Shown: positions 2,718-44,300 of the stretch, piece after piece
How the letters are laid out: each line of letters begins with the position of its first letter
How positions within the stretch are numbered: position 1 is the stretch's first letter
Origin: Planctomycetota bacterium
Lineage (GTDB): Bacteria > Planctomycetota > UBA8108 > SXIK01
NCBI GenBank assembly: GCA_965223265.1
Contig: OZ244999.1
Location: 4,091,822-4,155,821, forward strand
Direction of reading: 5' to 3'
DNA length: 64,000 bases
The notes under the pieces: model-generated
What the model saw: the letters and a program-made list of their open reading frames with translations, nothing else
Told to the model about the DNA's origin: nothing
Database searches by the model: none
Made by a program: the position numbers and the translations under genes

Positions 2718-3170
2718 CTATTCGGTCGTTATGGTGCCACTCTTCTCTTCGAGGGCGGCCTTCAGGGTGTGCCAGGACAAGCTGGCACATTTGACGCGAG
2801 CTGGAAACTCACACACACCAGCGAAAACGGCCAGCTTGCCGAGCTTCTCAGTGTCGACTACGTCACCGGGTCGACCCGTGAGCATCGCATGAAAGCCTTC
2901 GAACAGTTCCTCGACTTCGGCCTTCGACTTACCCACAAGCAACTCTGAAAGCAGTGACGCTGACGCCATCGAAATCGCACAGCCGGCACCGACAAAACTG
3001 ATGTCGGTGACGACATCGTCTTCGACCTTTACATACAAAGTGATGCGATCGCCGCAAATCGGATTGTATCCCTCAAGCTGCGTGGTGGCGTCGTCCATGG
3101 CATGAAAATTCCGCGGACTCTTGCCATGGTCCAGAACGACCTCTTGATAGAGTTCCCGCAAGTCCGACAT
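2718..3170 (-). CDS. sufU: SufU-like (NifU/IscU family) Fe-S scaffold / sulfur acceptor
   Basis: NifU-like core NPICGDRITLYVKV...AGCAISMASAS...CASLSWHT with conserved Cys. Stop/start overlap with sufS at 3170. Confidence 0.8.
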   Translation of the reverse strand: MSDLRELYQEVVLDHGKSPRNFHAMDDATTQLEGYNPICGDRITLYVKVEDDVVTDISFVGAGCAISMASASLLSELLVGKSKAEVEELFEGFHAMLTGRPGDVVDTEKLGKLAVFAGVCEFPARVKCASLSWHTLKAALEEKSGTITTE

Positions 3171-4444
3171 CAGCGAAACACCTCGTCAACCTTCCGCAGA
3201 GCCGACACCAGAGAATCCACTTCATCTCGAGTGTTGTAGAGAGCGAACGAAGCCCGTGCGGTGGCAGCAACGCCGTATCGCTCCATCACCGGCTGTGCAC
3301 AGTGGTGCCCGGCGCGAATCGCAACACCTTCCGTGTCGAGTATCGTACTAATGTCGTGCGGGTGAGCGGCGTCCATGAAAAAGGAGAGAATGCAGACCTT
3401 TTGCTCTGCCGTGCCAAGGAGCCGCACGCCCGGGAACTCTTGCAACTGCTCTGTGGCGTATTGCAGCAACTCCGCTTCGTGCTGCGCCGCCGCTTCGAGT
3501 CCGATCTCGGCGAGAAAATCGAGGGCTGCACCGAGCCCGATCACTCCAGCGATGTTCGGTGTACCAGCTTCAAACTTGTGAGGCGCCTTTTTGTAGGTCG
3601 AGCCTTCGAACGTCACCGTCGAAATCATCTCACCGCCGCCTTGATATGGAGACATCGCCTCGAGCAGCTCGGCCTTGCCGTAGAGCACCCCGACGCCCGT
3701 TGGACCATACAACTTATGCGACGAAAACGCGTAGAAGTCACAACCCAACTGCTGGACATCGACTGGCAGATGGGCCGCGGCCTGGGCACCGTCGATCATG
3801 ACCGTGGCACCCACCTCGTGTGCCCGAGCAACGATCTCGGCGACAGGGTTGACCGTTCCCAGTGCGTTCGAAGCGTGAACGACGGATACGAATCGTGTCG
3901 CCGGACCCAGGAGTTTCTCGAAATCTTCAAGCTCCGCCTCGCCTCGATCATTCAGTGGTACCACACGCAGGCGGGCGCCCGTCTCTTCGCAAACCATTTG
4001 CCAAGGCACGATGTTGGAGTGATGCTCCATCCCAGAGATCAAGATTTCGTCTCCAGGACTCAGGCGCCGCCGGCAAAATGCACTGGCGACGAGATTGATG
4101 CTCTCCGTTGTACCGCGCGTGAACACAACTTCGTCGGCCGATGCGGCCCCAATCCAGTCACGCACGCGTCCACGAACGCCTTCATAGTTTGCGGTGGCTT
4201 GCTCACTCAAATAGTGTAGACCGCGATGGATGTTGGCGTTTTCGTGTGAATAGTATTGCGACACACGCTCGATCACCCGGCGCGGTTTCTGTGTGGTCGC
4301 GGCGTTGTCCAAGTAGACGAGTTCTCGCCCACGAGGCCGAACGTCGAGCACGGGAAACTCAGCGCGAATCGCCTCGAGGTCGAGCTGCGGCCCTCGCCCC
4401 TGACGTCCTTGCTCTCCGCCGGCCCGATCTGTTAGCGCTCTCAT
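3170..4444 (-). CDS. sufS: Cysteine desulfurase SufS (class V aminotransferase)
   Basis: PLP-lysine region FSSHKLYGPTGVGVLYGK and active-site Cys loop RAGHHCAQP. 424 aa; stop overlaps the sufD start (ATGA-type overlap at 4441-4444). Confidence 0.9.
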   Translation of the reverse strand: MRALTDRAGGEQGRQGRGPQLDLEAIRAEFPVLDVRPRGRELVYLDNAATTQKPRRVIERVSQYYSHENANIHRGLHYLSEQATANYEGVRGRVRDWIGAASADEVVFTRGTTESINLVASAFCRRRLSPGDEILISGMEHHSNIVPWQMVCEETGARLRVVPLNDRGEAELEDFEKLLGPATRFVSVVHASNALGTVNPVAEIVARAHEVGATVMIDGAQAAAHLPVDVQQLGCDFYAFSSHKLYGPTGVGVLYGKAELLEAMSPYQGGGEMISTVTFEGSTYKKAPHKFEAGTPNIAGVIGLGAALDFLAEIGLEAAAQHEAELLQYATEQLQEFPGVRLLGTAEQKVCILSFFMDAAHPHDISTILDTEGVAIRAGHHCAQPVMERYGVAATARASFALYNTRDEVDSLVSALRKVDEVFR

Positions 4445-5877
4445 GCTCCGTCGTCCTGCTGATTCCGTGATCCGTTGAGGCTGTCCGTGGGGCTAAATCC
4501 CTGCGGCAATCGATCAAACAGACGCTTCTCCAGCGCCCCCCTGAGATCCTCCACCGTCACGGTCGAGAGCACGTCGGCGGCGAACGCATAGGTGAGAAGC
4601 GCTTCTGCGCTCGCACGACTCAGGCCGCGAGACCGGAGGTAGAAAACCGCTTCACGGTCAAGTTCGCCGACGGTCGCACCGTGAGTGCACTTGACATCAT
4701 CAGCGTAGATCTCGAGCTCGGGCTTACTGTTCATCACCGCACTGCGCGAGAGGAGCAGGCTCTGATTCGACTGTTTTGCGTCCGTCTTCTGGGCGTCCTG
4801 AGCGACGTAAATCTTACCGTTGAAAACCCCCGTTGCGCGGTCACACAAGATGTTCTTGTAGACCTCCCAGCTTCGACAATTCGGCTGCGCATGAACGATG
4901 CGAGTCTGGTTGTCCACATGCTCGTTCTCGCGCGCAACGACCAGGCCATTCAGGGTACATTCGGCCTCTTCCGCGCTCAGTACGACGTCGACATTGTTGC
5001 GAACCAACCCACCACCTAGGCAAACAGAGAGAGACGAGAACTTGCTTCCATGCGACTGCACCGCCGCGACACTGCCGAGATGGTACGAGCCTGCCGTCTC
5101 GCACACGATCCGATAGTGATCGACCGTGGCGCTTTCAGCGGCGAAGAATTCGGTTACGGGATTAGTCAGTGCGGAACCCGATTCCAATCCGACGTACTCT
5201 TCGACAAACGTCAAATGCGCGTCCGTCTCAGCGACGATCAAATTGCGCGGATACTGGGCCGTTGGAGACGAGCCGCCGGTCGCTACGAAAACAGTATGGA
5301 TCGGTTCCGGCACTTTTACCCCGCGCGGGACGTGGACGAACACGCCGTCCTGCATGTAGGCAGTATTGAGCGCGACGGTGCTGCGCTTCTCGACGCCCGC
5401 GCATGTTGACAGGCGTCTCTTCACCTCGGGGTCCGAGGCGAGAGAATCTCGTAGCGACACCACCTTGACGCCTGACGGCAGATCCCCGACGGAAGAATGC
5501 TCCGGGCAAAAACAGCCGTCGACGAAAAGCAAGCGAGTGCCCGCCAAACGAGATGTCAGCGCCTCCCAGTCGAGGTCGCCTCCTTCGGTGCGGGAGCGCG
5601 ACTCGGCCCGAGTCCAACTCACAGGCTGAAACTCGATGCGTCCGAGCGGCTGAAGGTTGGTGTACTTCCAGTCTTCGTCGCGAACGGTCGGCAGACCCGT
5701 GTTTTCGAATCGCGCAATGCCTTGCCGCCGCAATGCGCCGACCCATTCCGACTCCTGCGCCGACGCGAGTGAGGCAAACGCATCGAAATCCGCCACGAAG
5801 TTCCCCACAGCCTTCGCCCTCGCCGGACGGTTTGCGGTGCCGATTTTTGTTCCCACGTCGTCAGCTCTTGCAATCAT
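4441..5877 (-). CDS. sufD: Fe-S cluster assembly protein SufD
   Basis: 478 aa SufB/SufD family sequence between sufC and sufS. Overlaps sufC by 4 nt. Confidence 0.85.
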   Translation of the reverse strand: MIARADDVGTKIGTANRPARAKAVGNFVADFDAFASLASAQESEWVGALRRQGIARFENTGLPTVRDEDWKYTNLQPLGRIEFQPVSWTRAESRSRTEGGDLDWEALTSRLAGTRLLFVDGCFCPEHSSVGDLPSGVKVVSLRDSLASDPEVKRRLSTCAGVEKRSTVALNTAYMQDGVFVHVPRGVKVPEPIHTVFVATGGSSPTAQYPRNLIVAETDAHLTFVEEYVGLESGSALTNPVTEFFAAESATVDHYRIVCETAGSYHLGSVAAVQSHGSKFSSLSVCLGGGLVRNNVDVVLSAEEAECTLNGLVVARENEHVDNQTRIVHAQPNCRSWEVYKNILCDRATGVFNGKIYVAQDAQKTDAKQSNQSLLLSRSAVMNSKPELEIYADDVKCTHGATVGELDREAVFYLRSRGLSRASAEALLTYAFAADVLSTVTVEDLRGALEKRLFDRLPQGFSPTDSLNGSRNQQDDGA

Positions 5878-6632
5878 TTCGCGCCCGCAACCTCACTCTC
5901 GATCCAAGCGTAGCCCTTCTCTTCCAGCGTCAAGGCCAACTCCTTGGTTCCCGACTTGACGACTTGCCCTCGATAGAGAACATGGACAAAGTCTGGCACG
6001 ATGAAGTTCAGTAGCCGCTGATAGTGCGTGATGACGACGATCGCACGATCCGGGCCGCGTAGCGCGTTCACGCCGTCCGCGACGATCTTGAGCGCGTCGA
6101 TATCGAGCCCTGAATCCGTCTCGTCGAGGATCGCAAGCTTCGGTTCAAGAACGGCCATCTGAAAAATCTCGTTACGTTTCTTCTCGCCACCGGAGAAACC
6201 TTCGTTCACCGACCGATTCAAGAGTGCGTCATCAAGCTGCACGACCTGGCTCTTTTCTTTCATCAACGAAAGAAAATCCATGGCGTCGAGCTCAGGCTCA
6301 CCTCGGTGCTTTCGTATCGAGTTGAGCGCTGTCTTTAAGAAGTAGGTGTTGGTGACCCCCGGAACCTCGACGGGGTACTGAAAAGCGAGGAAGATGCCTT
6401 CACAGGCGCGCTCCTCAGGCTCCATGTCGAGGAGGTCTTTACCGTCATAGGTGACTTGGCCGCCTGTCACCTCATAGTCCTCGTGCCCCGCCAGGACTTT
6501 CCCCAACGTGCTCTTGCCGGAGCCGTTCGGCCCCATGATCGCGTGAACTTCACCGGCGTTCACCTGCAGATTAACGCCGTGCAGGATGGTCGCGCCTTCG
6601 GCGCTGGCAGTAAGATTCTTGATTTCTAACAT
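5874..6632 (-). CDS. sufC: Fe-S cluster assembly ATPase SufC
   Basis: Walker A GPNGSGKST, ABC signature LSGGEKKR, Walker B ILDETDSGLD. Start taken at MLEIKNL (6632) giving ~252 aa. Confidence 0.9.
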   Translation of the reverse strand: MLEIKNLTASAEGATILHGVNLQVNAGEVHAIMGPNGSGKSTLGKVLAGHEDYEVTGGQVTYDGKDLLDMEPEERACEGIFLAFQYPVEVPGVTNTYFLKTALNSIRKHRGEPELDAMDFLSLMKEKSQVVQLDDALLNRSVNEGFSGGEKKRNEIFQMAVLEPKLAILDETDSGLDIDALKIVADGVNALRGPDRAIVVITHYQRLLNFIVPDFVHVLYRGQVVKSGTKELALTLEEKGYAWIESEVAGAK

Positions 6633-6749
6633 AACTCTTTGTTCGTACGTCGTTGTCCACCTCGCCGTCGATAGCACACCTGACGATTTCAACCGAACAG
6701 GCGGATCTGTCGAGCGACGCGCTGACGTCAAAGTCAGTCGGCGTCTGAA

Positions 6750-8195
<1,446 letters not shown>

Positions 8196-8831: not shown

Positions 8832-8996
8832 AAACTAAACAACTTGCAACACAGATCGAACTGAAAACAGAGTAAAAACCTACGGAATTGTATTCTTTCA
8901 GCAGCGAAATTCCACAGTTTTGTAGGTTTTTTACACTCTGGCCCCCCGGCGCGGCGCAAAAGGGGTGCGAATCCGCCCGTGCAGACGGCGTCGCGA
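8832..8996 (-). promoter_or_regulatory. Probable promoter/operator region of the Rrf2-suf operon (also downstream of prx)
   Basis: 165-bp AT-richer gap containing imperfect inverted repeats (aaaacctacggaatt ... aattcc..gtaggtttt). An Rrf2 autoregulatory site is expected here. No specific motif was verified. Confidence 0.3.
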
Positions 8997-16089: not shown

Positions 16090-16122
16090 GCGTTGCGCTT
16101 TCATAACGTATTCATAACGTAT
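16090..16122. repeat. Three perfect tandem copies of the 11-mer TTCATAACGTA
   Basis: Read directly: ttcataacgta ttcataacgta ttcataacgta. The 11-bp period is about one helical turn. Confidence 0.85.
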
Positions 16123-16264
16123 TCATAACGTAGAAGTGACCGGCAAGATCGAGCCCCAATTGACCAACAATCGCCCTTTAACAGCTCGCTTGAAAAAGTC
16201 ATTCGGCCGAGAAACAGGCCTCTTCGCATCCAGTTTTCGACTCGAAGTACTTTTTCAACAGGCT

Positions 16265-16291
16265 GTTAACTCGAGGTTAACTCGAGGTTAA
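16265..16291. repeat. Tandem repeat GTTAACTCGAG x2 plus partial copy (each unit is two palindromic hexamers)
   Basis: Read directly: gttaactcgag gttaactcgag gttaa. Lies 65 bp upstream of the giant-gene ATG. Confidence 0.8.
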
Positions 16292-16355: not shown

Positions 16356-19300
16356 ATGCTTCGACCTCGACCACACATCTTCGCCGCGATCGTTTGTCCT
16401 CTCCTGTGCATCGCGCTGACAGCAGCTCTTTCCGCCGCCGACTGCAACTTCAACGGCATTGAGGATGGCGACGAGACGGCTCAGTCAACAGACCTTGACT
16501 GCAACGCCAACGGCATCCCGGACACGTGCGAGACCGCACCGCCAGCATTTAGAGCGCGGTCTGTTCTGAGCGTCGGTGGCGTCGCCAACAGCTTTCCGTG
16601 CGGTGACGTCAACGGCGACGAGATCCCTGACGTGATCGCAGGACACAATCGCGGCTTCACGGTTCTCCTGCAGCGACCGGCCGAGAGAGAATTCGACGCC
16701 ACCGACTACCCGGTCGACGGTGCCGGCAAAAAGTGGCTCCTTTTGGACGTCGACAGCGACAATGATCTCGACGTCGTCGGTGTGCAGACACGCCGCGTAG
16801 TGACATTCCTCAACAATGGCGAGGCCGAGTTTGCGGGTCCCGTCGATACCGAGTTCGACTCGGGAGTTGAGTCGTTCGCCGCAGGCGACATCGATGCAGA
16901 CGGCATCGTTGACGTAGTGCTCACGAATCGGGTCCGCGACCAGGTCTCCGTTTTGTTCGGCCGCGGCGATGGCCGATTCGATCGCGCCGCCCATACGGCC
17001 GTCGGAGAGTTCCCACTCGCGGTGGCTATCGCCGACCTCGACGGCGACGGCGACCTCGACGTTGCGACCGCCAACCGCGATGGCAACAGCGTCACGCTCC
17101 TCTCCAACGATCAAGGCGAGCTGGGTGAACGACAGGACGTCCAGGTCTCTGGGAGCTCACCGCAAGCCATCGTCGCCGCAGACTTCGGCGGCACGTCGCT
17201 TCCCGAACTGGTTGTTGGCACTCTTTCTTCGACGCTACTTTTGGAGAATCGAGGCGGCGAGCTGACACCAAGAGACCTGACGGTCGGCCTCGGGATTCAG
17301 CAACTCAGCGTCACGGACGTCAACGGTGACGGAAAGGACGACATCGTTGGCAGCATTCTCGACCCGCGCGCGTTCTGGACACTGACGTCTCTCGACGCAG
17401 GTGAATTCTCCCTCCACTCCTTCAATCTTGGAGACCGGCCGGAGGCGACCGAGGGCTGTGACCTCGACGGCGATGGCGACAGCGAGCTGTGTCTCGGCTT
17501 CTTCGGACTCGAGACGGTGAACGTGCTCTGGAACGATGACAGCGTCGAGCGCAACTTTCTTTCGTTCGGCGCTCCTGAGTTTTACGAGGCGGGCGGAAGA
17601 CCGCACACCGCCGGCACGGCTGACTTCAACGGTGACGGACACCTCGACCTCGTCACCGGCAACAATCGCAACAGCTCGACGGGTATGTCGGTCTACATCA
17701 ATCGCGGCGATGGAACGTTTCTACCTCGCGCGCACTACAACTCCATCGCCAGATCGTTCGCGATGGTCGTCGACGATTTCGACTTAGACGGCCACCTGGA
17801 ATTCGCGGTGGCAGACCCCTCGCAGAATAAGCCGGACATCGGCGTCATGCGAAACCGAGGCGACGGCACGTTCGTCTCCAGCCATACGCACAATTTGACG
17901 GGAGGTGCGTTTCACGTCACATCAGGAGATCTCGACGGCGACAGTTTTCCTGACCTCGTTGCGTCGATGCAGGGTGTCGGTGCTGTCGCGCTACTCTTCA
18001 ATGCTGGAGACGGCACGTTCACGAACGTCACCGACATTCGCGTTGGCGCCCGTCCCGTGAGCGCCGCAGTGGTCGACGTGGACGATGACGGACACCGCGA
18101 CATCGCTGTAGCGACGCTTTCTGGGGGTGGGATCGATTTGCTTCGGGGTGATGGCAGCGGGCTCTTCTCAGATCCCGAGAGGTTTCCGTTGGCCAACTCG
18201 CCTTCGTTCGTGATTGCGGTCGACATGAACGTCGACGGAGCTCCGGATCTCGTCACCGTGAGCGAATCGGGACAGAACGCGACGGTTCTATGGAATCAAG
18301 GACGGGGAGGATTCTCGGCCTCGCAGCCGTGGCCGCTGCGGACAAAGCCCTATTCGGTCCTCGAGGGTGACATGAACGCCGACGGCTTGCCAGATATCGT
18401 TGCGCTCAGTGAGCTGATCGGGAATTTCTCGCTGCTGCTCAATGGCGGCGACATGACGTTCAGCTCTCCGATACTGCTCGGGACGGGGCCGGGGCCGCGA
18501 TACGGCGCGATCGGCGACTTCGATGGCACCGGGACGGATGACCTCATGAGTGCGAATCGCCCCGGCAACAGTATCACGGTGATCCGCAACCAAACGGATG
18601 TGGCGTCGTTTCCCGCGGCGGCGCTAGAGCTGATCTGCACGGAAAAGAACTTCCTCGATATCTCTCGCCGGGTCACCACGCGCGGTTTGACGGTACGAGC
18701 GACGAAGTACGTAGCGCCCGCGCGAGCCGACGACGCGTCGCTTCTCTCGACGCAGTACCAGAACGTCAACCGCTTCGAGCTGCACGAAGAGTTCCTCGGC
18801 GCGGTGTTCCCCGAGCGCTTCCCGTCGCTGCCGGGCGACCGCGAGTTCTACAACCAGCTCATCGGCCGCCGCGCCACGCGTGACTACTACGTCGGCGTCT
18901 TGACGCGTCGCCAAGCGGAAAGCGGCCCGCTCTACACCTTCACCGCCGTCACCGACACCGGCTTCAGCGTCGGCGAGATTCTCGAGCAAGAGGAGCTCGA
19001 AGGCCTCTACACCACTCTCAAGGAGTCGTTCACTCTCGAGCCCCTTGCCTACGAGCCCGACACCGAGCTCGCCCGCCGCAAAGCCGAGACCTTCCAAAAC
19101 CCACAGTTCCCCGTCCACTTCGACGACGGCGCCGCCGGGCTCGACTACGAGCCCTACACCCTCGCCACCGGCTACGGCCGCGTGCGACTCTTGACGCTCG
19201 AAGAGTTCAACGACGCCAACGACAGCGGCACCTTCACCTTCCAGGACGTCCTCGTCGTCGATCTCGCGCCGCGCGACATCGAAGGCATCGTCGGCGGTGT

Positions 19301-25691: not shown

Positions 25692-26060
25692 TCTTCACCT
25701 CGGAATCAGTCGGTCGCGCTCAGAAAAGGACTGTGCACGACGACAGCGGCGGATTTCGATCTCTCTTCGAGGACAAACCCTCGGGAGGACACAAATCAGT
25801 TGGTCGACGCGTGAGCGGCCTTCGGGCCGACCGTGGCATACGTCGCACGTTACTTATACCGATGGCTCTCGAAAATGGCGCCTCAAGACTTGAGCGCCGG
25901 AACGCCACAGGGCCGATAACAGACTGTGGCTGCAGACGCAGTCGCCGCCGGAGCCCGCCCGCGTCAACTTCGGCTGTAGCTCGACAAAGCCGCGCCGCAC
26001 GCCCGCCGAGAGCCGCAGAGATTCTCTCTGCCTTCGGCGCCGTCGCCGCTTGAGCCCCCG

Positions 26061-26126
26061 TTTGCGTTTGCGTTTGCGTTTGCGTTTGCGTTTGCGTTTG
26101 CGTTTGCGTTTGCGTTTGCGTTTGCG
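26061..26126. repeat. Hexanucleotide microsatellite (TTTGCG)11
   Basis: Read directly. The six-frame ORFs across it translate as TQ/KR/AN dipeptide runs, as expected for a simple repeat. About 370 bp upstream of the patatin start. Confidence 0.9.
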
Positions 26127-26440
26127 TGGGCGTGGGAGTGGGCATGGGAGTGGGTGAACTCGGTTGCGGGCGTGCGTGTCGGTGCAAGTCTCGGTCGCGC
26201 ACCGCGAGGCTGTGAGTCTTTTTGGAACGTGCCGTCGTGCCTCACGGACACCTCCACGCTCGGACCCGGAACGGCACGCGGGAGCGTGCCTGCTACTTTG
26301 AAGATCGAGTTGGCGGTGGTAAGTGTAGAGTCGCAGGCACACGCCGTTTGCCGTGTCGCCGTGTCGCTGTTGCCGTGTGCCGTGTGCCGTGCCGGACGTG
26401 AACTAACCGTGACCGTGACCGTGAGTTGCGACGGCACTCC
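26127..26440. repeat. Compound simple-repeat tract: (GTGGG/GGGNGT)n, degenerate (GCCGTGT)6, (GTGACC)3, plus a palindromic-element copy
   Basis: tgggcgtgggagtgggcatgggagtgggtg; gccgtgtcgccgtgtcgctgttgccgtgtgccgtgtgccgtgcc; gtgaccgtgaccgtgag. Within it, 26286..26350 resembles the palindromic element at 39895..39984. Confidence 0.8.
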
Positions 26441-37347: not shown

Positions 37348-39456
37348 TCAAAACTGACAGCTCTTCGGCTGGGCGCCGCACCCCATCGCATTGTCGGCCT
37401 CGAGTGTTGCGGGCCCGCACTCGGGGAATGGAGCAACCGGCTCCGCGCTGCCAGCGACGAAGAGGAACGATAACAGCGTGATCGGATCCGAGATGTCGAC
37501 ACCGTCGTCGCCGTTGACATTGAGCGCGGCTCGGCAACCCGGCTGCGACGGTGTGCTGGAGAAAAGAACGCTCAGCATGCAGATCGCATCGGAGATGTCA
37601 GCGACGCCGTCGTCATTACAGTCGCCACGACTGAACGCGAGTTGTGGTCGAGACTTCTCGAACTGCTGAGCAAGCTCGTCCGCCATACCGAACCAAGACT
37701 GAGCCACGTTCGGTCCCAGAATCCTTCGATCTACGGCGGACATAACCTCGTCCACGAACCGGCGCAAGGCGTCAGCTAAGCCATTATCGTCGCCCCGCTC
37801 GACGGCGAGCGCCGCGAGCTCGATTTCGCGTGCGAGAAGGCGCACGTCGTTCGGCTCGAGAAACGGCGCTGCAAGGATTTCGCGCAGGAGGGCTTGAGTG
37901 ATCGAATCAAGTGTGCGCGTCTGCTTCGCCACCCAGCCGTTCGAGAAACCGAACGCACCGCTATCTGGCGTGGCCTCGAGGAGAGCCCCGCGCGTCGTCG
38001 GAAAGTTCGACGACCATGTGAACCCGCTGGCGTACGCATTCCCCGTCTCGTCAACAGAAATGCTCGTGCCGTAATCGCGCGGGCCGGCGATCAGAAACCC
38101 GCCCAGGTTCCCGCCAAGCGTCCGTGAGGAGTCCAGCGTTCGACCACTGGCGGAAACGACCGTCAGGAATGCGTCTGCTTCGCTGTCGATGAGACCGTTG
38201 TCGACGGCCAGGGTCGGGAACCCCGGCCTTCCGACGCCAGTGACGTATGCACGACCAAGACGATCGACGTCGATTTCGTAGCCGACATCAGCGTTGCCGC
38301 CGCCCAAGTAGGTCGAATATCGCAAACGGCGTGCATCGGTGGAAAGCTTCGCGACCCAGGCATCAGAGCCAGTGCCTGAGGCGCAGCCGCACTCACTCTG
38401 GTACGCGTAATCGGTGATGGGAAAGTTGGTCGAGGTCGTGGATCCGGTTGCGTAGATGTTACCGTCGCTATCAAGCGCCAAGTCATAGATGTCGTCGGAG
38501 CGCGAGCCGCCCAGGTAGGTCGAAAAGACAAGCATGTTGAGCCCGATCTTCGACGGATCGATTTTGGCGATCCAGGCGTCGCTGCCACCTGCGGACTCCT
38601 CCGCGTAGACACCGACGGTCGTCGGGAAACCACCTTGCGAACTCCCGCCGACATAGAAGAATCCGCGTTCATCCACTGCAACTCCCCTGGCGATGTCGCG
38701 CCGGTCGCCGCCGAGATAGAAGCCGCTGACCTGAGCGCCACTCTCGTGGAGCAGAGCGACGAAGGCGTCGGTATCGCCGTTGAACGTGAAGTCGTAGCCG
38801 AATTCCGTCACGGCGAAGTCTCCATCCGTGTCGCCGACGATCATGACGCGCCCTCTGGAATCCACGGCGATGTCGAACGCCTCGTCGTCCCCCGCCCCAC
38901 CGAGGTACGTCGAGTAAACGATCCTCGTCGCGTCTGCGGTTAACTTGACGACGAAAGCATCACGCGGTGCCCACTCCTCAGAAGGATCCGTGGCGCCACC
39001 ACCGAGCTCTGCCTGATGCGCGTTCACGGCCGGAAAATCACCTGAACGAGTCGATCCGGTCACGTAGATGCTACCGTCCAATCCGACCGCAGCACCGGAG
39101 CTCAGGTCGTGACCGCTCCCGCCGACGAAAGAGCCGCCGAGAACGTTTCGGCCGTCGGGGGTGAGGCGCAGGACGAAGACGTCGCTCTGCCCGCAGTTTC
39201 CGAAGCCATCGCAGCCGTCACGGCCGATGGCTCCCATCAAATCCGCTGAGCTCGTGGAACCGACGACGACAACGTTGCCGTCCGGCGCCACCACGACGGC
39301 AGACACTTCGTCTCCTGCGCCACCACCGAAGTATGTACTGAACTCGATCTCCGCCGTGAGACGATGACCGGTCAATGCGATGATCAACAGAGCTGAGAGC
39401 GCGGCGGCAAGCGGGTGACCCGGGCGGGAGGTTGCGGGCAGGCTTGAACGAAACAT
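37348..39456 (-). CDS. Secreted SBBP-type beta-propeller-repeat protein with C-terminal dockerin-like domain (tandem paralog 1)
   Basis: Signal MFRSSLPATSRPGHPLAAALSALLIIALTGHRLTA. Repeated YSTYLGG...DxAxxIAVD blades. C-terminal RGDCNDDGVADISDAICMLSVLF...NVNGDDGVDISDPITLLSFLF. AAGGAGA Shine-Dalgarno sequence before the ATG. Confidence 0.8.
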   Translation of the reverse strand: MFRSSLPATSRPGHPLAAALSALLIIALTGHRLTAEIEFSTYFGGGAGDEVSAVVVAPDGNVVVVGSTSSADLMGAIGRDGCDGFGNCGQSDVFVLRLTPDGRNVLGGSFVGGSGHDLSSGAAVGLDGSIYVTGSTRSGDFPAVNAHQAELGGGATDPSEEWAPRDAFVVKLTADATRIVYSTYLGGAGDDEAFDIAVDSRGRVMIVGDTDGDFAVTEFGYDFTFNGDTDAFVALLHESGAQVSGFYLGGDRRDIARGVAVDERGFFYVGGSSQGGFPTTVGVYAEESAGGSDAWIAKIDPSKIGLNMLVFSTYLGGSRSDDIYDLALDSDGNIYATGSTTSTNFPITDYAYQSECGCASGTGSDAWVAKLSTDARRLRYSTYLGGGNADVGYEIDVDRLGRAYVTGVGRPGFPTLAVDNGLIDSEADAFLTVVSASGRTLDSSRTLGGNLGGFLIAGPRDYGTSISVDETGNAYASGFTWSSNFPTTRGALLEATPDSGAFGFSNGWVAKQTRTLDSITQALLREILAAPFLEPNDVRLLAREIELAALAVERGDDNGLADALRRFVDEVMSAVDRRILGPNVAQSWFGMADELAQQFEKSRPQLAFSRGDCNDDGVADISDAICMLSVLFSSTPSQPGCRAALNVNGDDGVDISDPITLLSFLFVAGSAEPVAPFPECGPATLEADNAMGCGAQPKSCQF

Positions 39457-39894
39457 GTCATTTCTCCTTGGAAGTCGTGAACCAGTGCAACGGGACGCGC
39501 CACGCGTCCTCACGCACCTGGGGGCGACAACGGCGGGTCGATTGGCTCACGGTTTTTGTGAGAATCTTGATTCCGCCTCGACCGGGGCGGCGGGCGGAGC
39601 TCCTCGTGCCGCAGGAAGATCACCTTAGCGCTTGCGGCGTAAAGACTTAGCTCCTGGGTGAGGGGGATGAAGCAGAGGCAGATACAGATCGCGCTTGGTG
39701 AGGCTTGTCGATGTGCCGTGTTCGACCAATTCGGACCATCGACCGAACTGGCGTCCGTTGGTGACCCGCGTCCTCCACGCACGCGCACACGGAGAGGCTG
39801 TGAAGGTTTAACACGTGCCGTCAAAACTTGCGCTCCGCACGGTCGCCTCCCGAACGGCACGAATTCTTTAACTGCTGTTGCAGCTCGCAGACAT

Positions 39895-39984
39895 CCGGAA
39901 CGGCACACGGCGTGTGCCTGCTACTATAAAGACGTCACCGATACGCTTTTCAAAGTAGCAGGCACACGCCGTGTGCCGTTCCGG
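39895..39984. repeat. Perfect 31-bp inverted repeat (arms 39895..39925 and 39954..39984, 28-bp spacer). Each arm contains a nested 8+1+8 palindrome.
   Basis: ccggaacggcacacggcgtgtgcctgctact ...28 nt... agtagcaggcacacgccgtgtgccgttccgg, read directly. Related copy at about 26286..26350 and a partial arm at about 40026..40040. Coordinates may be off by 1. Confidence 0.85.
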
Positions 39985-40164
39985 AGAGTTGCGACGGCAA
40001 GTTTCGAAAACTTCACAGCCTCGGAGTGTGCCTGCTACTTGAGCACTCGCACACCCGCACCCACGCTCACACCCACACGCACACCGAGTCCAAGACGCCT
40101 ACACGACAGAGCAGAACGTCAGACTCCGCGCTGGTTCCCGTCGACTGTGCTTTCCCCGCAAAGC

Positions 40165-42294
40165 TTAGAATTCACAGCTCTTTGGCCGCGTGGCGCAGCC
40201 GACCGCACCGTCGGCATCGAGTGTTGTCGGTCCGCACCAAGGAAACGGAGCTACCGGCGGTGCGCTGTCGGCAACGAAGAGAAAATTGAGCAGCGCGATC
40301 GGATCCGAGATATCGACGCCGGCGTCACCGTTGACGTTCAGCGCAGCCTGGCAGATCGGCTCCGAGCCAGTGTTGGTGAACAGTGCGTTCAGCGTGCAAA
40401 CCGCATCAGAGATGTCAGCGTCACCGTCGTCGTTGCAGTCGCCACGACGGAGGATGATCGCTGGCAGCGACTTCTCAAGCTGCAGCGTCATTTCGCTGAG
40501 CAAATCAAGCCAGGCCTCCGCCGCGCTTGGGGTCAACCTGCGCTCATCCACAACCGTCTCGACCGCAATTGCGAACCGCCGCAGCGCGTCGAAAAACTCG
40601 TCGAGGTCGCCGCGCTCAGCAGCCAGAACGGCGAGTTCGATCTCTCGGGCCAGGAGACGGACGTCTTCGGGTTCGAGAAAGGGTCCCGCTTCGACTTCAC
40701 GCGTGAGAGCGTCGCTCACCGAGTGCAGGTCGCCGCGCGCCTGCTTCACAAGCCAACCGTCGAAGTAACCAACGGAACCATCATCCGCAGGCTCCTCAAG
40801 AAGAGCGCCGCTCGTCGTCGGGAAGTTCGAAGACCACGAGAGTCCACCAGCGTAGACGCAGCCGCCCTCATCGACCGCGATGCTCCTGCCGAGATCGAGC
40901 GGCTCTAAGAGGAAACCCCCGCCCTCCGCCCCTCCCAGAGTCCTCGACGACTGGAGTGTTCGCCCGGTAGCGGAGACGACGGCGATGAACGCATCTCCCT
41001 TAATGTCGATGAAGCTATTCTCCGGGGGGACCGGAAATCCCGGTCGTGCGGCTCCGGTAACGTATGCCCTGCCAAAGCTGTCCACGTCGACTCGCTTGCC
41101 AGTGTCAGCACCGCCGCCGCCCAAATAAGACAAATAGACGAGTGCACGCCCGTTGGCGGAGATCTTTCCGACCCAGGCGTCCGCCCCACTTTCAGGAGAG
41201 AGATCGCAGCCGCACTCACGCTGAAACGCAAAGTCCGTCACGGGAAGGTCGCTCGAGGCGGTGTCGCCCGTCGCGTAGATATTCCCATCCGGGCCGATCT
41301 CGAGACCAAAGATGTGATCCGGTCCCGTGCCGCCCAGATATGTCGAAAAGACGAGCATGTTGAGACCGATCTTCGTCGGGTCGATCTTGGCGACCCAACC
41401 GTCGACGCTGCCGATTCTGTTCTCCTCGTAGACGCCGGTCGTGGTCGGAAACCCTCCCTCGGTATCTCCACCAACGTAAAAGAAGCCCTGCGCATCTACG
41501 GCAGCGCCTTGGGCCGTATCTTCGCGATCACCGCCGAGATAGAAACCACTGTACTGGACGCCGTTTTCGAGGAACAGAGCGACGAACCCGTCGGTACGTC
41601 CACCGTTGTATGTGAAGTCGAAGCCGAATTCGGTCACTGCAAAATCGCCATCCGTTGCGCCGACAATCATGACGCGTCCCTGGGGGTTGACGGCGATGTC
41701 GAATGCCTCGTCGTTTCCCGGACCGCCGAGATAGGTCGAGTAGACGATGGTCGTCGCGTCCGCGGTCAGCTTGACGACAACGGCGTCCCGCGGCGGTTGC
41801 TCTTGAGAAGGGTCTGTTGCCCCGTCGCCAAGCTCGCTCTGATGCGCCGCGACGGTCGGAAAGTCACCCGATCGAGTGAATCCCGTCACGTAAATGCTGC
41901 CATCGGCACCTATGGCCACGCCCGTGGCTTCGTCGAAACTGCTGCCACCGATGCGGCTCCCGCCCTCCAAAATCTGACTTCCGTCTGGACTGACCCGTAG
42001 GACGAAGATGTCGCCCTGGCCACAGTTTCCGAAGCTGTTGCACCCCTCCTGCGTCAAGACCCCCATCACACTTTCCGAACTGCTGGTACCGACGACAACC
42101 AAGTTGCCGTCCGGTGCCACAGCGACCGCGTTGATGGTGTCGCCGGAAGGGCCACCGAAGTAGGTACTGAAGTCGATCTCCGCGGCGACGAGGCGGAACA
42201 CGCCGAGCCCAGCAGTTCCAGCCGTGAGTGTTACCAGAATGACCGCGAGCCGGCGAAAGTGAACAAGTGAGGGCATGGTTGACGCACAGAGCAT
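40165..42294 (-). CDS. Secreted SBBP-type beta-propeller-repeat protein with C-terminal dockerin-like domain (tandem paralog 2)
   Basis: Same architecture as 37348..39456 at about 55-60% identity. Signal MLCASTMPSLVHFRRLAVILVTLTAGTAGLG. Dockerin RRGDCNDDGDADISDAVCTLNALF...NVNGDAGVDISDPIALLNFLF. AAGGAGA Shine-Dalgarno sequence before the ATG at 42294. Confidence 0.8.
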   Translation of the reverse strand: MLCASTMPSLVHFRRLAVILVTLTAGTAGLGVFRLVAAEIDFSTYFGGPSGDTINAVAVAPDGNLVVVGTSSSESVMGVLTQEGCNSFGNCGQGDIFVLRVSPDGSQILEGGSRIGGSSFDEATGVAIGADGSIYVTGFTRSGDFPTVAAHQSELGDGATDPSQEQPPRDAVVVKLTADATTIVYSTYLGGPGNDEAFDIAVNPQGRVMIVGATDGDFAVTEFGFDFTYNGGRTDGFVALFLENGVQYSGFYLGGDREDTAQGAAVDAQGFFYVGGDTEGGFPTTTGVYEENRIGSVDGWVAKIDPTKIGLNMLVFSTYLGGTGPDHIFGLEIGPDGNIYATGDTASSDLPVTDFAFQRECGCDLSPESGADAWVGKISANGRALVYLSYLGGGGADTGKRVDVDSFGRAYVTGAARPGFPVPPENSFIDIKGDAFIAVVSATGRTLQSSRTLGGAEGGGFLLEPLDLGRSIAVDEGGCVYAGGLSWSSNFPTTSGALLEEPADDGSVGYFDGWLVKQARGDLHSVSDALTREVEAGPFLEPEDVRLLAREIELAVLAAERGDLDEFFDALRRFAIAVETVVDERRLTPSAAEAWLDLLSEMTLQLEKSLPAIILRRGDCNDDGDADISDAVCTLNALFTNTGSEPICQAALNVNGDAGVDISDPIALLNFLFVADSAPPVAPFPWCGPTTLDADGAVGCATRPKSCEF

Positions 42295-42800
42295 GTGGTT
42301 CTCCTTGGCGGGTAGCAGACCGCTAGACAGGAATGCACTCCGCGTGCCTCGCTCTTGACGAGTCAACGAGTCGCGCATTCGCTCCTGGCCTTGCTGCACA
42401 AACACGTGAGTAGAAATCAAATGGCCTAAGCGCATCCCCCTCCGCACGCCGCTCGATCCTTGCAGCATTCTGCCATAAAACGTGAGCGCACGGGCCCAAG
42501 AACCGGGGCGACCGCCTGTCTGATGACGACGGAGAGTAATCCGCGGCGGCCGAGCGAGCTCCGTTCCTCTTTCTGATGGACCGTCGCGACCTGTCTGTAT
42601 CGCGAGCGCGAACTCGTCATGACTCAACGCACGTCCTGCTACCGCAGCGGGTGCCAGCGTCTGACCACCGCGGACGCATCAACCACTGCCGCAACAGAGT
42701 CCGGGCTTCACGACAGCGTGCAAGAGAACGCGTGGGACGATGTCGATCCACCATCGAAGGCCGACGTGAGTCCGCCCCTGCCCTTGCGCTCGAGCTCAAC

Positions 42801-42846
42801 AAAAAAGACTCGAACCCGAAGAGTTCGGGTTCGAGTCTTTTCTTCG
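42801..42846. terminator. Bidirectional rho-independent terminator downstream of the porin gene
   Basis: A6-AGACTCGAACCCGAA-gag-TTCGGGTTCGAGTCT-TTTTcTT. Perfect 15-bp stem, with a U-run on both strands (better on the minus strand). Confidence 0.7.
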
Positions 42847-42944: not shown

Positions 42945-44300
42945 TCAGAACTTCAACTCTGCCTGCAACCAGTAACGCTGAATATCGCCGCCAGCGAGTA
43001 CCGACTCGCCTTCAAACACGGCGAGCTTGGCAAGTACGGCAAGATTCTTCGTAATCGCTTTGCGCAGCGCTGCATCAAATTCGACACCGAAATCTCGGCT
43101 CCTGTCTTCAGAGAAGAACATGTGAAAAACCGCCTGGAACTTCATGTCCCAGGGAAGCGGCGCTCTGACGTACGCGTAGAGATCTTCCAGTCCGTCGGGA
43201 GGCGTGACCAAAAACTTGTCGGCCCAACCGTTGAACTTGTGCAGCGTGGCCAGTGGGGTACTGAAGGACGCGGCGCCCCCATCGCTGCTCAGCACCTCGT
43301 AGCCAACGCCAAACGTGCCAACGCCTTTGACTCCGACGTTCCCTTCGAGAAGAAGATAGTGAGCCTTGTAGTCGTTCGGATTGTCCCCCGCGTCGACCTG
43401 ATAGGCGTAGGACAGTATGTAGCCGAAGCTCAGTTTCTCCTCTTGAAACTTCTGCGTTCCGTTCAGGCGGAGACCGACAGTGTTCGAAGAGTTCACGTCA
43501 GAATTGGGAAGGTCGATCAAGTAGCCAAAGCCAGTCAACGTCCCTACCGGGAGGCCGGAGTAGGACGCGCGGATCAAATGCGAGTCTGATTTGAAATCGC
43601 GACCGGCGTCAGGCCCAAAGATCCGGTTCACTTCGTCAATGTACCCATAGTAAAGCGACAGATCTTCGACCCAATCAGATTGGATCGTGAGGGCGTCATA
43701 GGTCTGTTCATTCTGGCGCCACCCGACGTTGCCGACGAACCTGGCGTCGTCGAGAATGATGCGTTGCCGTCCAATCTTTCCGGTGAAGAAGTCGTGATCG
43801 TAGCGAATAAAGGCACGGTTTAGCTCCGTGTTCTCCGGGTCAGCGATCACAGTCTTTCCGGGTTCACCGTTGAGACCCGCGGCGTTGTAGAGGTCCTCGT
43901 CCGCCGAACGCGTATCTTCGAACTCCAAGAAGCCCGAGAATCCATAGAACGGTTTCGTCCCGTATCCGAGACGAAGCCGTTCCGTGTACGCTTGTGAAGT
44001 GTCGAGTCCTTCTTGTTCAGCGATCTCCACACGAGCTCGGAGGTCGAAACTCAGCTTTCCATTGATGATGGAATCCATAAATGAGTGCCAGACGCTCGCC
44101 TCTTCGCCACCAGAAGCGGGCCCCGCCACCTCTCCCGGTGCCGTTTCTTGAGGTGCTTGCCCTTGCAGCGAAGCGGCTTCCACACGCGGTGGCACGCTAG
44201 CTGCCTGGTCGCTGGGTTCAGCAACCACCGGACCGAGCGCCCAGAAAAGAAGGACTAAGGAAACAATCTGAAAGATTGGGTTGGAAATCGTCTTTTTCAT
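42945..44300 (-). CDS. Outer-membrane beta-barrel protein (alginate-export/AlgE-like porin family)
   Basis: Signal peptide MKKTISNPIFQIVSLVLLFWALGPVVA. Alternating amphipathic beta-strand pattern. C-terminal aromatic residue (..WLQAELKF). Family resemblance is a judgement, not verified. Confidence 0.65.
   Translation of the reverse strand: MKKTISNPIFQIVSLVLLFWALGPVVAEPSDQAASVPPRVEAASLQGQAPQETAPGEVAGPASGGEEASVWHSFMDSIINGKLSFDLRARVEIAEQEGLDTSQAYTERLRLGYGTKPFYGFSGFLEFEDTRSADEDLYNAAGLNGEPGKTVIADPENTELNRAFIRYDHDFFTGKIGRQRIILDDARFVGNVGWRQNEQTYDALTIQSDWVEDLSLYYGYIDEVNRIFGPDAGRDFKSDSHLIRASYSGLPVGTLTGFGYLIDLPNSDVNSSNTVGLRLNGTQKFQEEKLSFGYILSYAYQVDAGDNPNDYKAHYLLLEGNVGVKGVGTFGVGYEVLSSDGGAASFSTPLATLHKFNGWADKFLVTPPDGLEDLYAYVRAPLPWDMKFQAVFHMFFSEDRSRDFGVEFDAALRKAITKNLAVLAKLAVFEGESVLAGGDIQRYWLQAELKF

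Follow-up and report, generated by a model that had tools for sequence, protein, structure and literature searches.

A perfect 31-nt inverted repeat between tandem SBBP genes of a planctomycete is probably a pair of GTAG-tagged REP units

Introduction

What kind of element is a perfect inverted repeat lodged between two tandem paralogous genes? The question is raised by a locus in a 64,000-nt stretch of planctomycete DNA (the window), in which two arms of 31 nt at 39895-39984 face each other between genes for two SBBP beta-propeller proteins with dockerin-like C-termini. An initial annotation made from the letters alone had proposed several candidates for this element, namely a REP- or MITE-like repeat, the binding site of a regulator, a structured small RNA, and a terminator for the upstream SBBP gene.

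Several features of REP sequences in other bacteria bear on the question. The REP-associated transposase of E. coli, TnpA_REP (RAYT), reads the tetranucleotide GTAG base-specifically together with the foot of the adjoining hairpin (PMC3479197), and REP doublets have been proposed as the replicative unit (PMC3116915). GTAG-tagged REPs that form HH, TT and HT dimers with structured spacers have been described, including in the planctomycete R. baltica (PMC3733652), and IS elements belonging to five families are known to insert into REPs (PMC1525189).

Results

Geometry and setting of the inverted repeat

The two arms, CCGGAACGGCACACGGCGTGTGCCTGCTACT at 39895-39925 and AGTAGCAGGCACACGCCGTGTGCCGTTCCGG at 39954-39984, are complementary at all 31 positions and lie 28 nt apart, as first described, and their complementarity continues imperfectly out to 46 nt (87%). 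By a wide margin, no other inverted repeat of the 64-kb window is as long as this arm pair when arms up to 300 nt apart are considered. Each arm carries GGCACAC-N3-GTGTGCC, so the smaller palindrome noticed inside the arms is present in both. The 17-mer palindrome has six matches in the window against 0.05 expected from shuffles, and GTGCCTGCTACT has five against 0.14. The potential to form a long hairpin is likewise borne out by folding: a 110-nt region is predicted to fold as single-stranded DNA with -54.7 kcal/mol (z = -15), and the 281 nt around the element to fold as RNA with -156 to -158 kcal/mol (z = -12.5 and -11.1 on the two strands).

The element lies, as reported initially, between tandem SBBP paralogs, in a gap of 708 nt with both genes on the minus strand. 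The downstream gene (37348-39456, minus strand) encodes a protein of 702 aa with a 100%-identical database protein (P0001), and the upstream paralog (40165-42447, minus strand, stop codon at 40165) a protein of 760 aa by the database call (P0002). P0002 is 63% identical to the 702-aa paralog, and both are on the same 9.18-Mb contig. Between the upstream paralog and an alginate-export-like gene (42945-44300, minus strand) stands a terminator of the canonical bidirectional intrinsic type at 42803-42841, with a perfect 18-bp stem, a 3-nt loop and AAAA/TTTT flanks. Farther away, the window holds a suf operon on the minus strand (3170-8195) with sufB at 6750-8195, sufD at 4441-5877, sufS at 3170-4444 and, assigned by position, a probable sufC at 5874-6731. 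The genes in the window point to a planctomycete; the best named matches of SufB are a Gemmataceae MAG (85%) and Armatimonadota (84%), and this is weak evidence because the protein is too conserved for taxonomy. An intergenic 18-nt inverted repeat upstream of the operon (8874-8931) could be a regulator site. Two perfect tandem repeats of 11 nt, TTCATAACGTA in three copies at 16100-16132 and GTTAACTCGAG in 2.5 copies at 16265-16291, lie upstream of a 1813-aa ORF that starts at 16356.

REP units within a nested palindrome

When the window was scanned with a family profile built from 269 units (the family is described below), exactly five units were found, all intergenic and at two loci. Two of them are the arms of the inverted repeat. 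Unit L (39895-39925) reads on the minus strand as AGTAGCAGGCACACGCCGTGTGCCGTTCCGG, that is, a GTAG tag, CA, and a 7-bp stem closed by a GCC loop; its profile match is complete (39927-39898, minus strand, E = 2.7e-10). Unit R (39954-39984, plus strand) is identical in sequence to unit L, and its match is complete as well (39952-39981, E = 1.5e-10). Both arms carry AGTAG, with GTAG unpaired in the fold, and each unit is predicted to fold as DNA into a 7-bp stem with a 3-nt loop at -7.4 kcal/mol. Written as a single-stranded DNA oligo, the GTAG-hairpin unit is AAAGTAGCAGGCACACGCCGTGTGCCGT. The two GTAG heads face each other across the 28-nt spacer (39926-39953), which has a small hairpin of its own; few pairs in the family are arranged GTAG-inward in this way, which Di Nocera et al. 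2013 call a 'TT' dimer.

The 31-nt repeat is the core of a nested palindrome of about 250 nt (39785-40031), whose arms match at 31 of 31 positions in the core and then, going outward, at 6 of 10, 13 of 16 and 21 of 25 (60-84% for the outer arms). Because identity drops from the core outward, the REP units were kept or refreshed better than their surroundings. The contrast between core and outer arms suggests that the REP units were recently copied or converted, or that they are under selection, which agrees with how the perfection of the repeat had been read at the outset.

The outer part of the palindrome contains a third REP in two pieces. Its GTAG-proximal half, CGGAG-TGTGCC-TG-CTAC-T, lies at 40022-40040 on the minus strand, where a partial arm had been noted near 40026; it is a TCC/GGA loop variant, matches profile positions 2-20 (E = 2.9e-5), and pairs with 39953-39971 as a 19-nt inverted repeat (95%). 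The distal half, GCGCACA-CGGAG, lies at 39783-39794, also on the minus strand. Between the halves is a palindromic segment of 227 bp (39795-40021) that has the REP pair at its centre and perfect 11-nt terminal inverted repeats, AGGCTGTGAAG at 39795-39805 and CTTCACAGCCT at 40011-40021, and is flanked by the direct repeat CGGAG at 39790-39794 and 40022-40026. Deleting 39795-40026, so that 39776-39794 is joined to 40027-40045, restores GCACACGGAGTGTGCCTGCTACTT, which agrees with the family consensus at 24 of 24 positions. The restored REP has the majority TCC loop, whereas the two inner units have GCC. Judged from these junctions, the 227-bp segment with its REP pair appears to sit inside the loop of an older REP, with CGGAG duplicated. 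The left palindrome arm alone has an extra 56 nt (39829-39884), which include a partial duplicate of the REP tail, CTCCCGAACGGCAC, at 39847-39860. Adjoining the GTAG end of the split REP is a CA-rich hexamer tract on the plus strand (40044-40090, with CACACC six times at 40050-40085). The whole of this cluster and segment is referred to as composite B. It is bracketed by CA-rich direct repeats that are 84% identical, CACGCACGCGCACACGGAG at 39776-39794 and CACCCACACGCACACCGAG at 40058-40088; for their origin, a CA-rich landing site and derivation from a REP stem half are both conceivable.

A decayed second copy, composite A

The related imperfect copy that had been placed near 26286-26350 is present at about 26266-26354; the family profile matches this copy and the partial arm at 40022-40040 with E values in the range of 1e-5 to 8e-5. 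It belongs to a decayed copy of the composite, inverted relative to B (26187-26440, plus strand, outer arm GAGGCTGTGAG), which is situated between a patatin-like gene and a sulfatase gene, 13.6 kb from B. In composite A, too, two REPs face each other GTAG-inward, and the roughly 30 nt between them can be aligned in part with the spacer of B. One member of the pair (26269-26299, minus strand) is a variant with the compensated stem GGCACGC/GCGTGCC, predicted to fold as DNA at -9.5 kcal/mol, and the other (26329-26354, plus strand) is degenerate, with a GTCG head and a broken stem. The inner arm, GTTGCGACGGCA, is at 26425-26436, and the inner-arm motif in common with the architecture of B is ACGTGCCGTC/GACGGCA. 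Composite A is antisense to its flanking genes; across A and B, the element thus occurs in both orientations relative to its neighbors. It does not have the right-hand terminal repeat, and on one side its homology with B runs past the terminal repeat, which means that flanking DNA was taken along in at least one duplication.

Hexamer and heptamer microsatellites are found within the window only at these two composites. On the outer side of composite A, a perfect (CGTTTG)x11.5 microsatellite is followed by G3 runs of the GTGGG type (26059-26154, plus strand), and this GT-rich tract can be aligned with the CA-rich tract, which lies on the equivalent side of B. A heptamer array, GCCGTGT in 6.9 copies (26343-26391, plus strand), arose by tandem slippage from the neighboring REP, whose distal stem half it repeats. 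Across the family loci, we found no general association between GT/CA tracts and REPs. Five G3 runs spaced 4-5 nt apart (GTGGGCGTGGGAGTGGGCATGGGAGTGGGTG) abut composite A and form a possible G-quadruplex motif.

A dispersed family of REP units

Outside the window, a gapped pattern of the arm matched one MAG contig with the title Fimbriiglobus sp. and another with the title Gemmataceae bacterium, in which the sequence of about 30 nt occurs several times and in inverted pairs. A 23-nt pattern was found in at least 120 metagenome fragments and in 18 pieces of IMG/VR contigs. Altogether, at least about 270 further units are present on at least about 140 fragments of genome, metagenome and IMG/VR origin. 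The element had been called a member of a small repeated family; the repeat family stands, with copies in the window and elsewhere, but these numbers show that it is not small. PLSDB plasmids gave no match. The flanks are unrelated between loci in an all-against-all comparison and come from many environments, as expected of a dispersed element.

In the conserved unit of 25-31 nt, an unpaired 5' GTAG and two bases precede a 7-bp stem that is closed by a 3-nt loop. The consensus over 233 flanked units among the matches listed is AAA-GTAG-[C/T]A-GGCACAC-[T/G]CC-GTGTGCC-GT. G, T, A and G of the tag are present in 231, 231, 228 and 228 of the 233 listed units, counts that are biased because one unit at each locus was retrieved with a pattern that included the GTAG positions. 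Conservation extends beyond the positions of that pattern, with an A-rich stretch at -3 to -1 and G and T at +23 and +24, and all of these family statistics lean toward the consensus because retrieval by an exact pattern favors consensus-like units. The stem covaries: among 65 distinct unit sequences, five of the seven pairs are changed on both sides (15 cells), none of 500 shuffles reaches the observed values, and slid registers all score far lower.

The units are mostly extragenic. Among the 273 listed, 23% fall in predicted genes, compared with 81% coding sequence in the same loci, by codon-bias gene calls that are rough and overextend 5' ends. With the same rough calls, convergent, divergent and co-directional intergenic regions contain units in 20 of 65, 14 of 62 and 55 of 241 cases, respectively, and these similar rates argue against a dedicated terminator role. 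Doublets predominate, with 68 loci having two units and 40 having one among the matches listed. The close pairs comprise 79-84 in the inverted GTAG-outward orientation ('HH', the REPIN arrangement) with a modal spacer of 9 nt, 17 in direct orientation, and only two, of about 98, that are GTAG-inward. A 59-nt REPIN, GTAGCAGGCACACGCCGTGTGCCGT-CCGCCGGTT-ACGGCACACGGCGTGTGCCTACTAC, recurs in many unrelated flanks and has a predicted fold of -31 kcal/mol. The two arms of a pair tend to agree in their loop variant, which may merely reflect genome-specific variants. Taken together, the arms of the inverted repeat are units of a dispersed, mostly extragenic, covarying and doublet-forming repeat of Gemmataceae-type planctomycete sequences.

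REPs usually exceed 100 copies per genome; the window has five units in 64 kb at two loci, and a single 44-kb IMG/VR contig has 21. This contig, IMGVR_UViG_3300031576_000108 (covering our loci L128, L129, L131, L137, L138, L140, L143 and L145), is classed as viral, with its 21 units within 43 kb at a density far above that of the window; a piece of host chromosome or a prophage of long residence would be possible origins. In 65 kb from the three closest relatives found by SBBP and SufB (L123, L124 and L146, contigs of 0.2-7.9 Mb from one long-read metagenome, sample ERZ25072999) there is not a single REP unit, and the family thus has a patchy distribution in related planctomycetes. The comparison of the flanking SBBP genes for insertion polymorphism, which had been suggested as a check, yielded no case: the nearest SBBP homologues are not syntenic, and the all-against-all comparison contains no pair of loci with and without the REP.

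In the first 380 nt of the metagenome contig MKWU01064904.1 (L079), nine REP units follow one another in the same direction, separated by spacers of three types that recur. We rejected a CRISPR reading of this array because its spacers recur, and regard it as a head-to-tail REP cluster.

Search for a cognate transposase

Neither phmmer, with an E. coli YafM sequence or an ORF of locus L027 as query, nor an HUH...Y regular expression found a RAYT among the ORFs of the window and of 141 loci, made up of the first 123 and the 18 from IMG/VR. There is about one RAYT per several hundred REPs, so roughly 0.5 would be expected in the loci searched, and the absence says little. The only RayT-like ORF in these sequences, that of L027 (3-803), is partial, lies 7 kb from a REP, and matches NF047646 below the cut-off. 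It belongs to a family of about 370 aa with HUH/Y1-like features that carries the JGI name 'REP element-mobilizing transposase RayT'. Its members (L027 3-803, L125 4001-5131, L126 and L127) are 93-99% identical in nucleotide sequence in several unrelated contexts, often on very short contigs, and the family thus behaves as an insertion sequence. Six further loci (L125-L127 and L147-L149, four contexts) have no GTAG REPs at the ends of the gene. Being itself mobile and having no such REPs at its ends, this family was provisionally rejected as the cognate enzyme. ORFs between the REP doublets of L057 and L075 were also dismissed, one being membrane-protein-like and the rest spurious.

Weighing the alternatives

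The structure of composite B raises the question of whether the 227-bp segment is the true mobile unit, a MITE whose mobility would depend on a DDE-type transposase with REP loops as its target, and the REP pair merely its core. We consider this possible but doubtful, and it is compatible with the arms being REPs. The perfect 11-nt terminal inverted repeats, the 5-nt direct repeat CGGAG and the consensus REP obtained on excision all speak for it, as do a second copy of the same internal architecture 13.6 kb away and the documented use of REPs as targets across five IS families (PMC1525189). However, the 'terminal repeats' are the outermost part of a continuous palindrome and therefore do not count as an independent observation. 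Moreover, only two copies are known, and the outer arms are absent from the approximately 140 REP-bearing fragments of other organisms, with which only the REP unit of about 30 nt is common; IMG/VR matches to a pattern of the outer-arm junction (L150-L264) were discarded as chance, the pattern being too loose. The missing right-hand terminal repeat of composite A also counts against a MITE, and the duplication together with flanking DNA makes a clean MITE model insufficient to explain everything.

The remaining alternatives assign the hairpin a local function. That it is kept for a role in RNA, as a 3'-end terminator or stabilizer of the upstream SBBP mRNA (minus strand) or as an insulator between the paralogs, is improbable in our view. 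Its position, which begins some 125 nt and ends some 380 nt past the stop codon of the upstream paralog, and its very high predicted RNA stability would suit such a role, and E. coli REPs are reported as context-dependent 3'UTR elements. Yet the stem is not followed by a T-run on either strand, AGAGTTGCG (plus) and ATGTCTGCG (minus) being found instead, and the textbook terminator at 42803-42841 looks different. The antisense position of composite A and the finding that divergent promoter regions hold units about as often as 3' regions point the same way, and the terminator candidate of the initial annotation thus finds no support, although a by-product effect of the element on mRNA ends is possible. 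An operator for a dimeric regulator, or a site for an architectural protein specific to the SBBP locus, would account for the perfect dyad symmetry and for a location about 440-530 nt upstream of the start of the downstream gene (39456). It is very unlikely: across about 140 fragments of diverse environmental origin, the genes beside the 25-nt unit are unrelated, and the covariation keeps base pairing rather than base identity, which favors a hairpin over a double-stranded operator. A discrete structured small RNA is the candidate to which we give the least credence. The fold is strong on both strands, but there are no promoter-like hexamers at the element, its orientation is not conserved, and only the unit of 25-31 nt is conserved between genomes. 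A promoter and terminator scan of both strands at the element found none, and Rfam gave no match at the gathering threshold for the whole window. In an E-value scan of the element, the only hit was MIR898, a plant miRNA-precursor model, with 42.8 bits against a gathering score of 75 bits; as this is typical of any long hairpin, we regard the match as an artefact.

Discussion

The inverted repeat is probably a pair of REP units and part of a BIME-like cluster of three REPs, which fits the REP/MITE-like candidate named at the outset in that its arms are GTAG-tagged REP units with further copies in the window and in many other sequences. The points that we count against this reading are that no RAYT was located, that there are only five units in 64 kb, that the stem is 7 bp long, that the GTAG-inward pair is a rare arrangement, and that the retrieval was biased.

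If the units behave as those of E. coli and Pseudomonas do, they would be copied or rearranged in trans by a RAYT, an HUH/Y1 tyrosine transposase with a single gene at another place in the genome, which would recognize them as single-stranded DNA hairpins and read the GTAG tag together with the foot of the stem. At the present locus, the junction suggests that two identical GCC-loop units came to lie GTAG-inward at the centre of the 227-bp palindromic segment, and that this segment inserted into the loop of an older TCC-loop REP, with a duplication of CGGAG. Should the element influence the flanking SBBP genes, for instance by stopping 3' exonucleases or read-through, this would be a side effect.

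Less conventional versions of the REP interpretation are unlikely. The 227-bp palindrome might be a composite non-autonomous element made of REP units that inserts into REP loops and seeds the hexamer and heptamer microsatellites at its edges, or the REPINs might be kept without a canonical RAYT, by a divergent HUH enzyme or a REP-loop-targeting transposase. If either were true, it would represent REP biology undescribed in proteobacteria. If, as we favor, the arms are ordinary REP units, the current understanding of REPs is unchanged, and the split-REP junction and the REP-associated microsatellites are only mildly unusual details.

The REP/REPIN family of Gemmataceae-type planctomycetes is apparently uncatalogued. 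In our literature search, REPs of Gemmataceae were not described anywhere. The available part of the supplementary text of PMC3733652 contains neither GGCACAC nor GTAGCAGG, and Gemmataceae are not among the genomes of that paper. The compact 59-nt REPIN consensus is usable for annotating planctomycete genomes. To our knowledge, work on REP/REPIN-RAYT systems has been almost entirely in Gammaproteobacteria, and the family described here adds a distant lineage for asking about their age and vertical inheritance. The split-REP junction provides a small natural case of a REP loop as an insertion target outside enterobacteria and pseudomonads. The 21 units on one 'viral' contig also call for caution in gene callers, assemblers and viral-contig classifiers.

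Compared with the REP/BIME and TnpA_REP system of E. coli, the family is alike in its unpaired 5' GTAG followed by a G+C-rich hairpin, in its extragenic and dispersed location, and in its clusters of alternating orientation with short linkers. The sequences are unrelated, however, and no RAYT was located in the loci searched here. In E. coli the stem is 10 bp long and contains a mismatch bulge on which the RAYT depends (PMC3479197), whereas the stem here is a perfect 7 bp with a 3-nt loop. The REPINs of Pseudomonas fluorescens (Bertels & Rainey 2011) resemble the family in that inverted doublets predominate, form one long hairpin with matching arms, occur in many flanks, and also form tandem clusters, as at L079. 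The commonest doublet here is more compact (59 nt with a 9-nt spacer), and the pair in the window differs from those REPINs in being GTAG-inward, in its spacer of 28 nt, and in forming part of a larger palindrome.

The subterminal hairpins of IS200/IS605 elements and of their non-autonomous derivatives (PATEs) likewise have a 5' guide-like tetranucleotide and are recognized by Y1 HUH enzymes, but the ends of IS200/IS605 elements stand in direct orientation around tnpA/tnpB, unlike the inverted doublets here, which have no gene between them. REP-targeting IS elements (IS1397, ISKpn1, IS621, ISPpu9/10) and MITEs provide a parallel for the 227-bp segment, which interrupts a REP loop and has terminal repeats and a short duplication; the segment differs in having no transposase gene, in being known from two copies, and in being built around REP units. 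A further parallel is the GTAG super-family of Di Nocera et al. 2013, with 24 families that include GTAG-20/21 of Rhodopirellula baltica, already reported in Planctomycetes and the PVC group. It has the same GTAG tag, stems of 6-9 bp, HH, TT and HT dimers and structured spacers.
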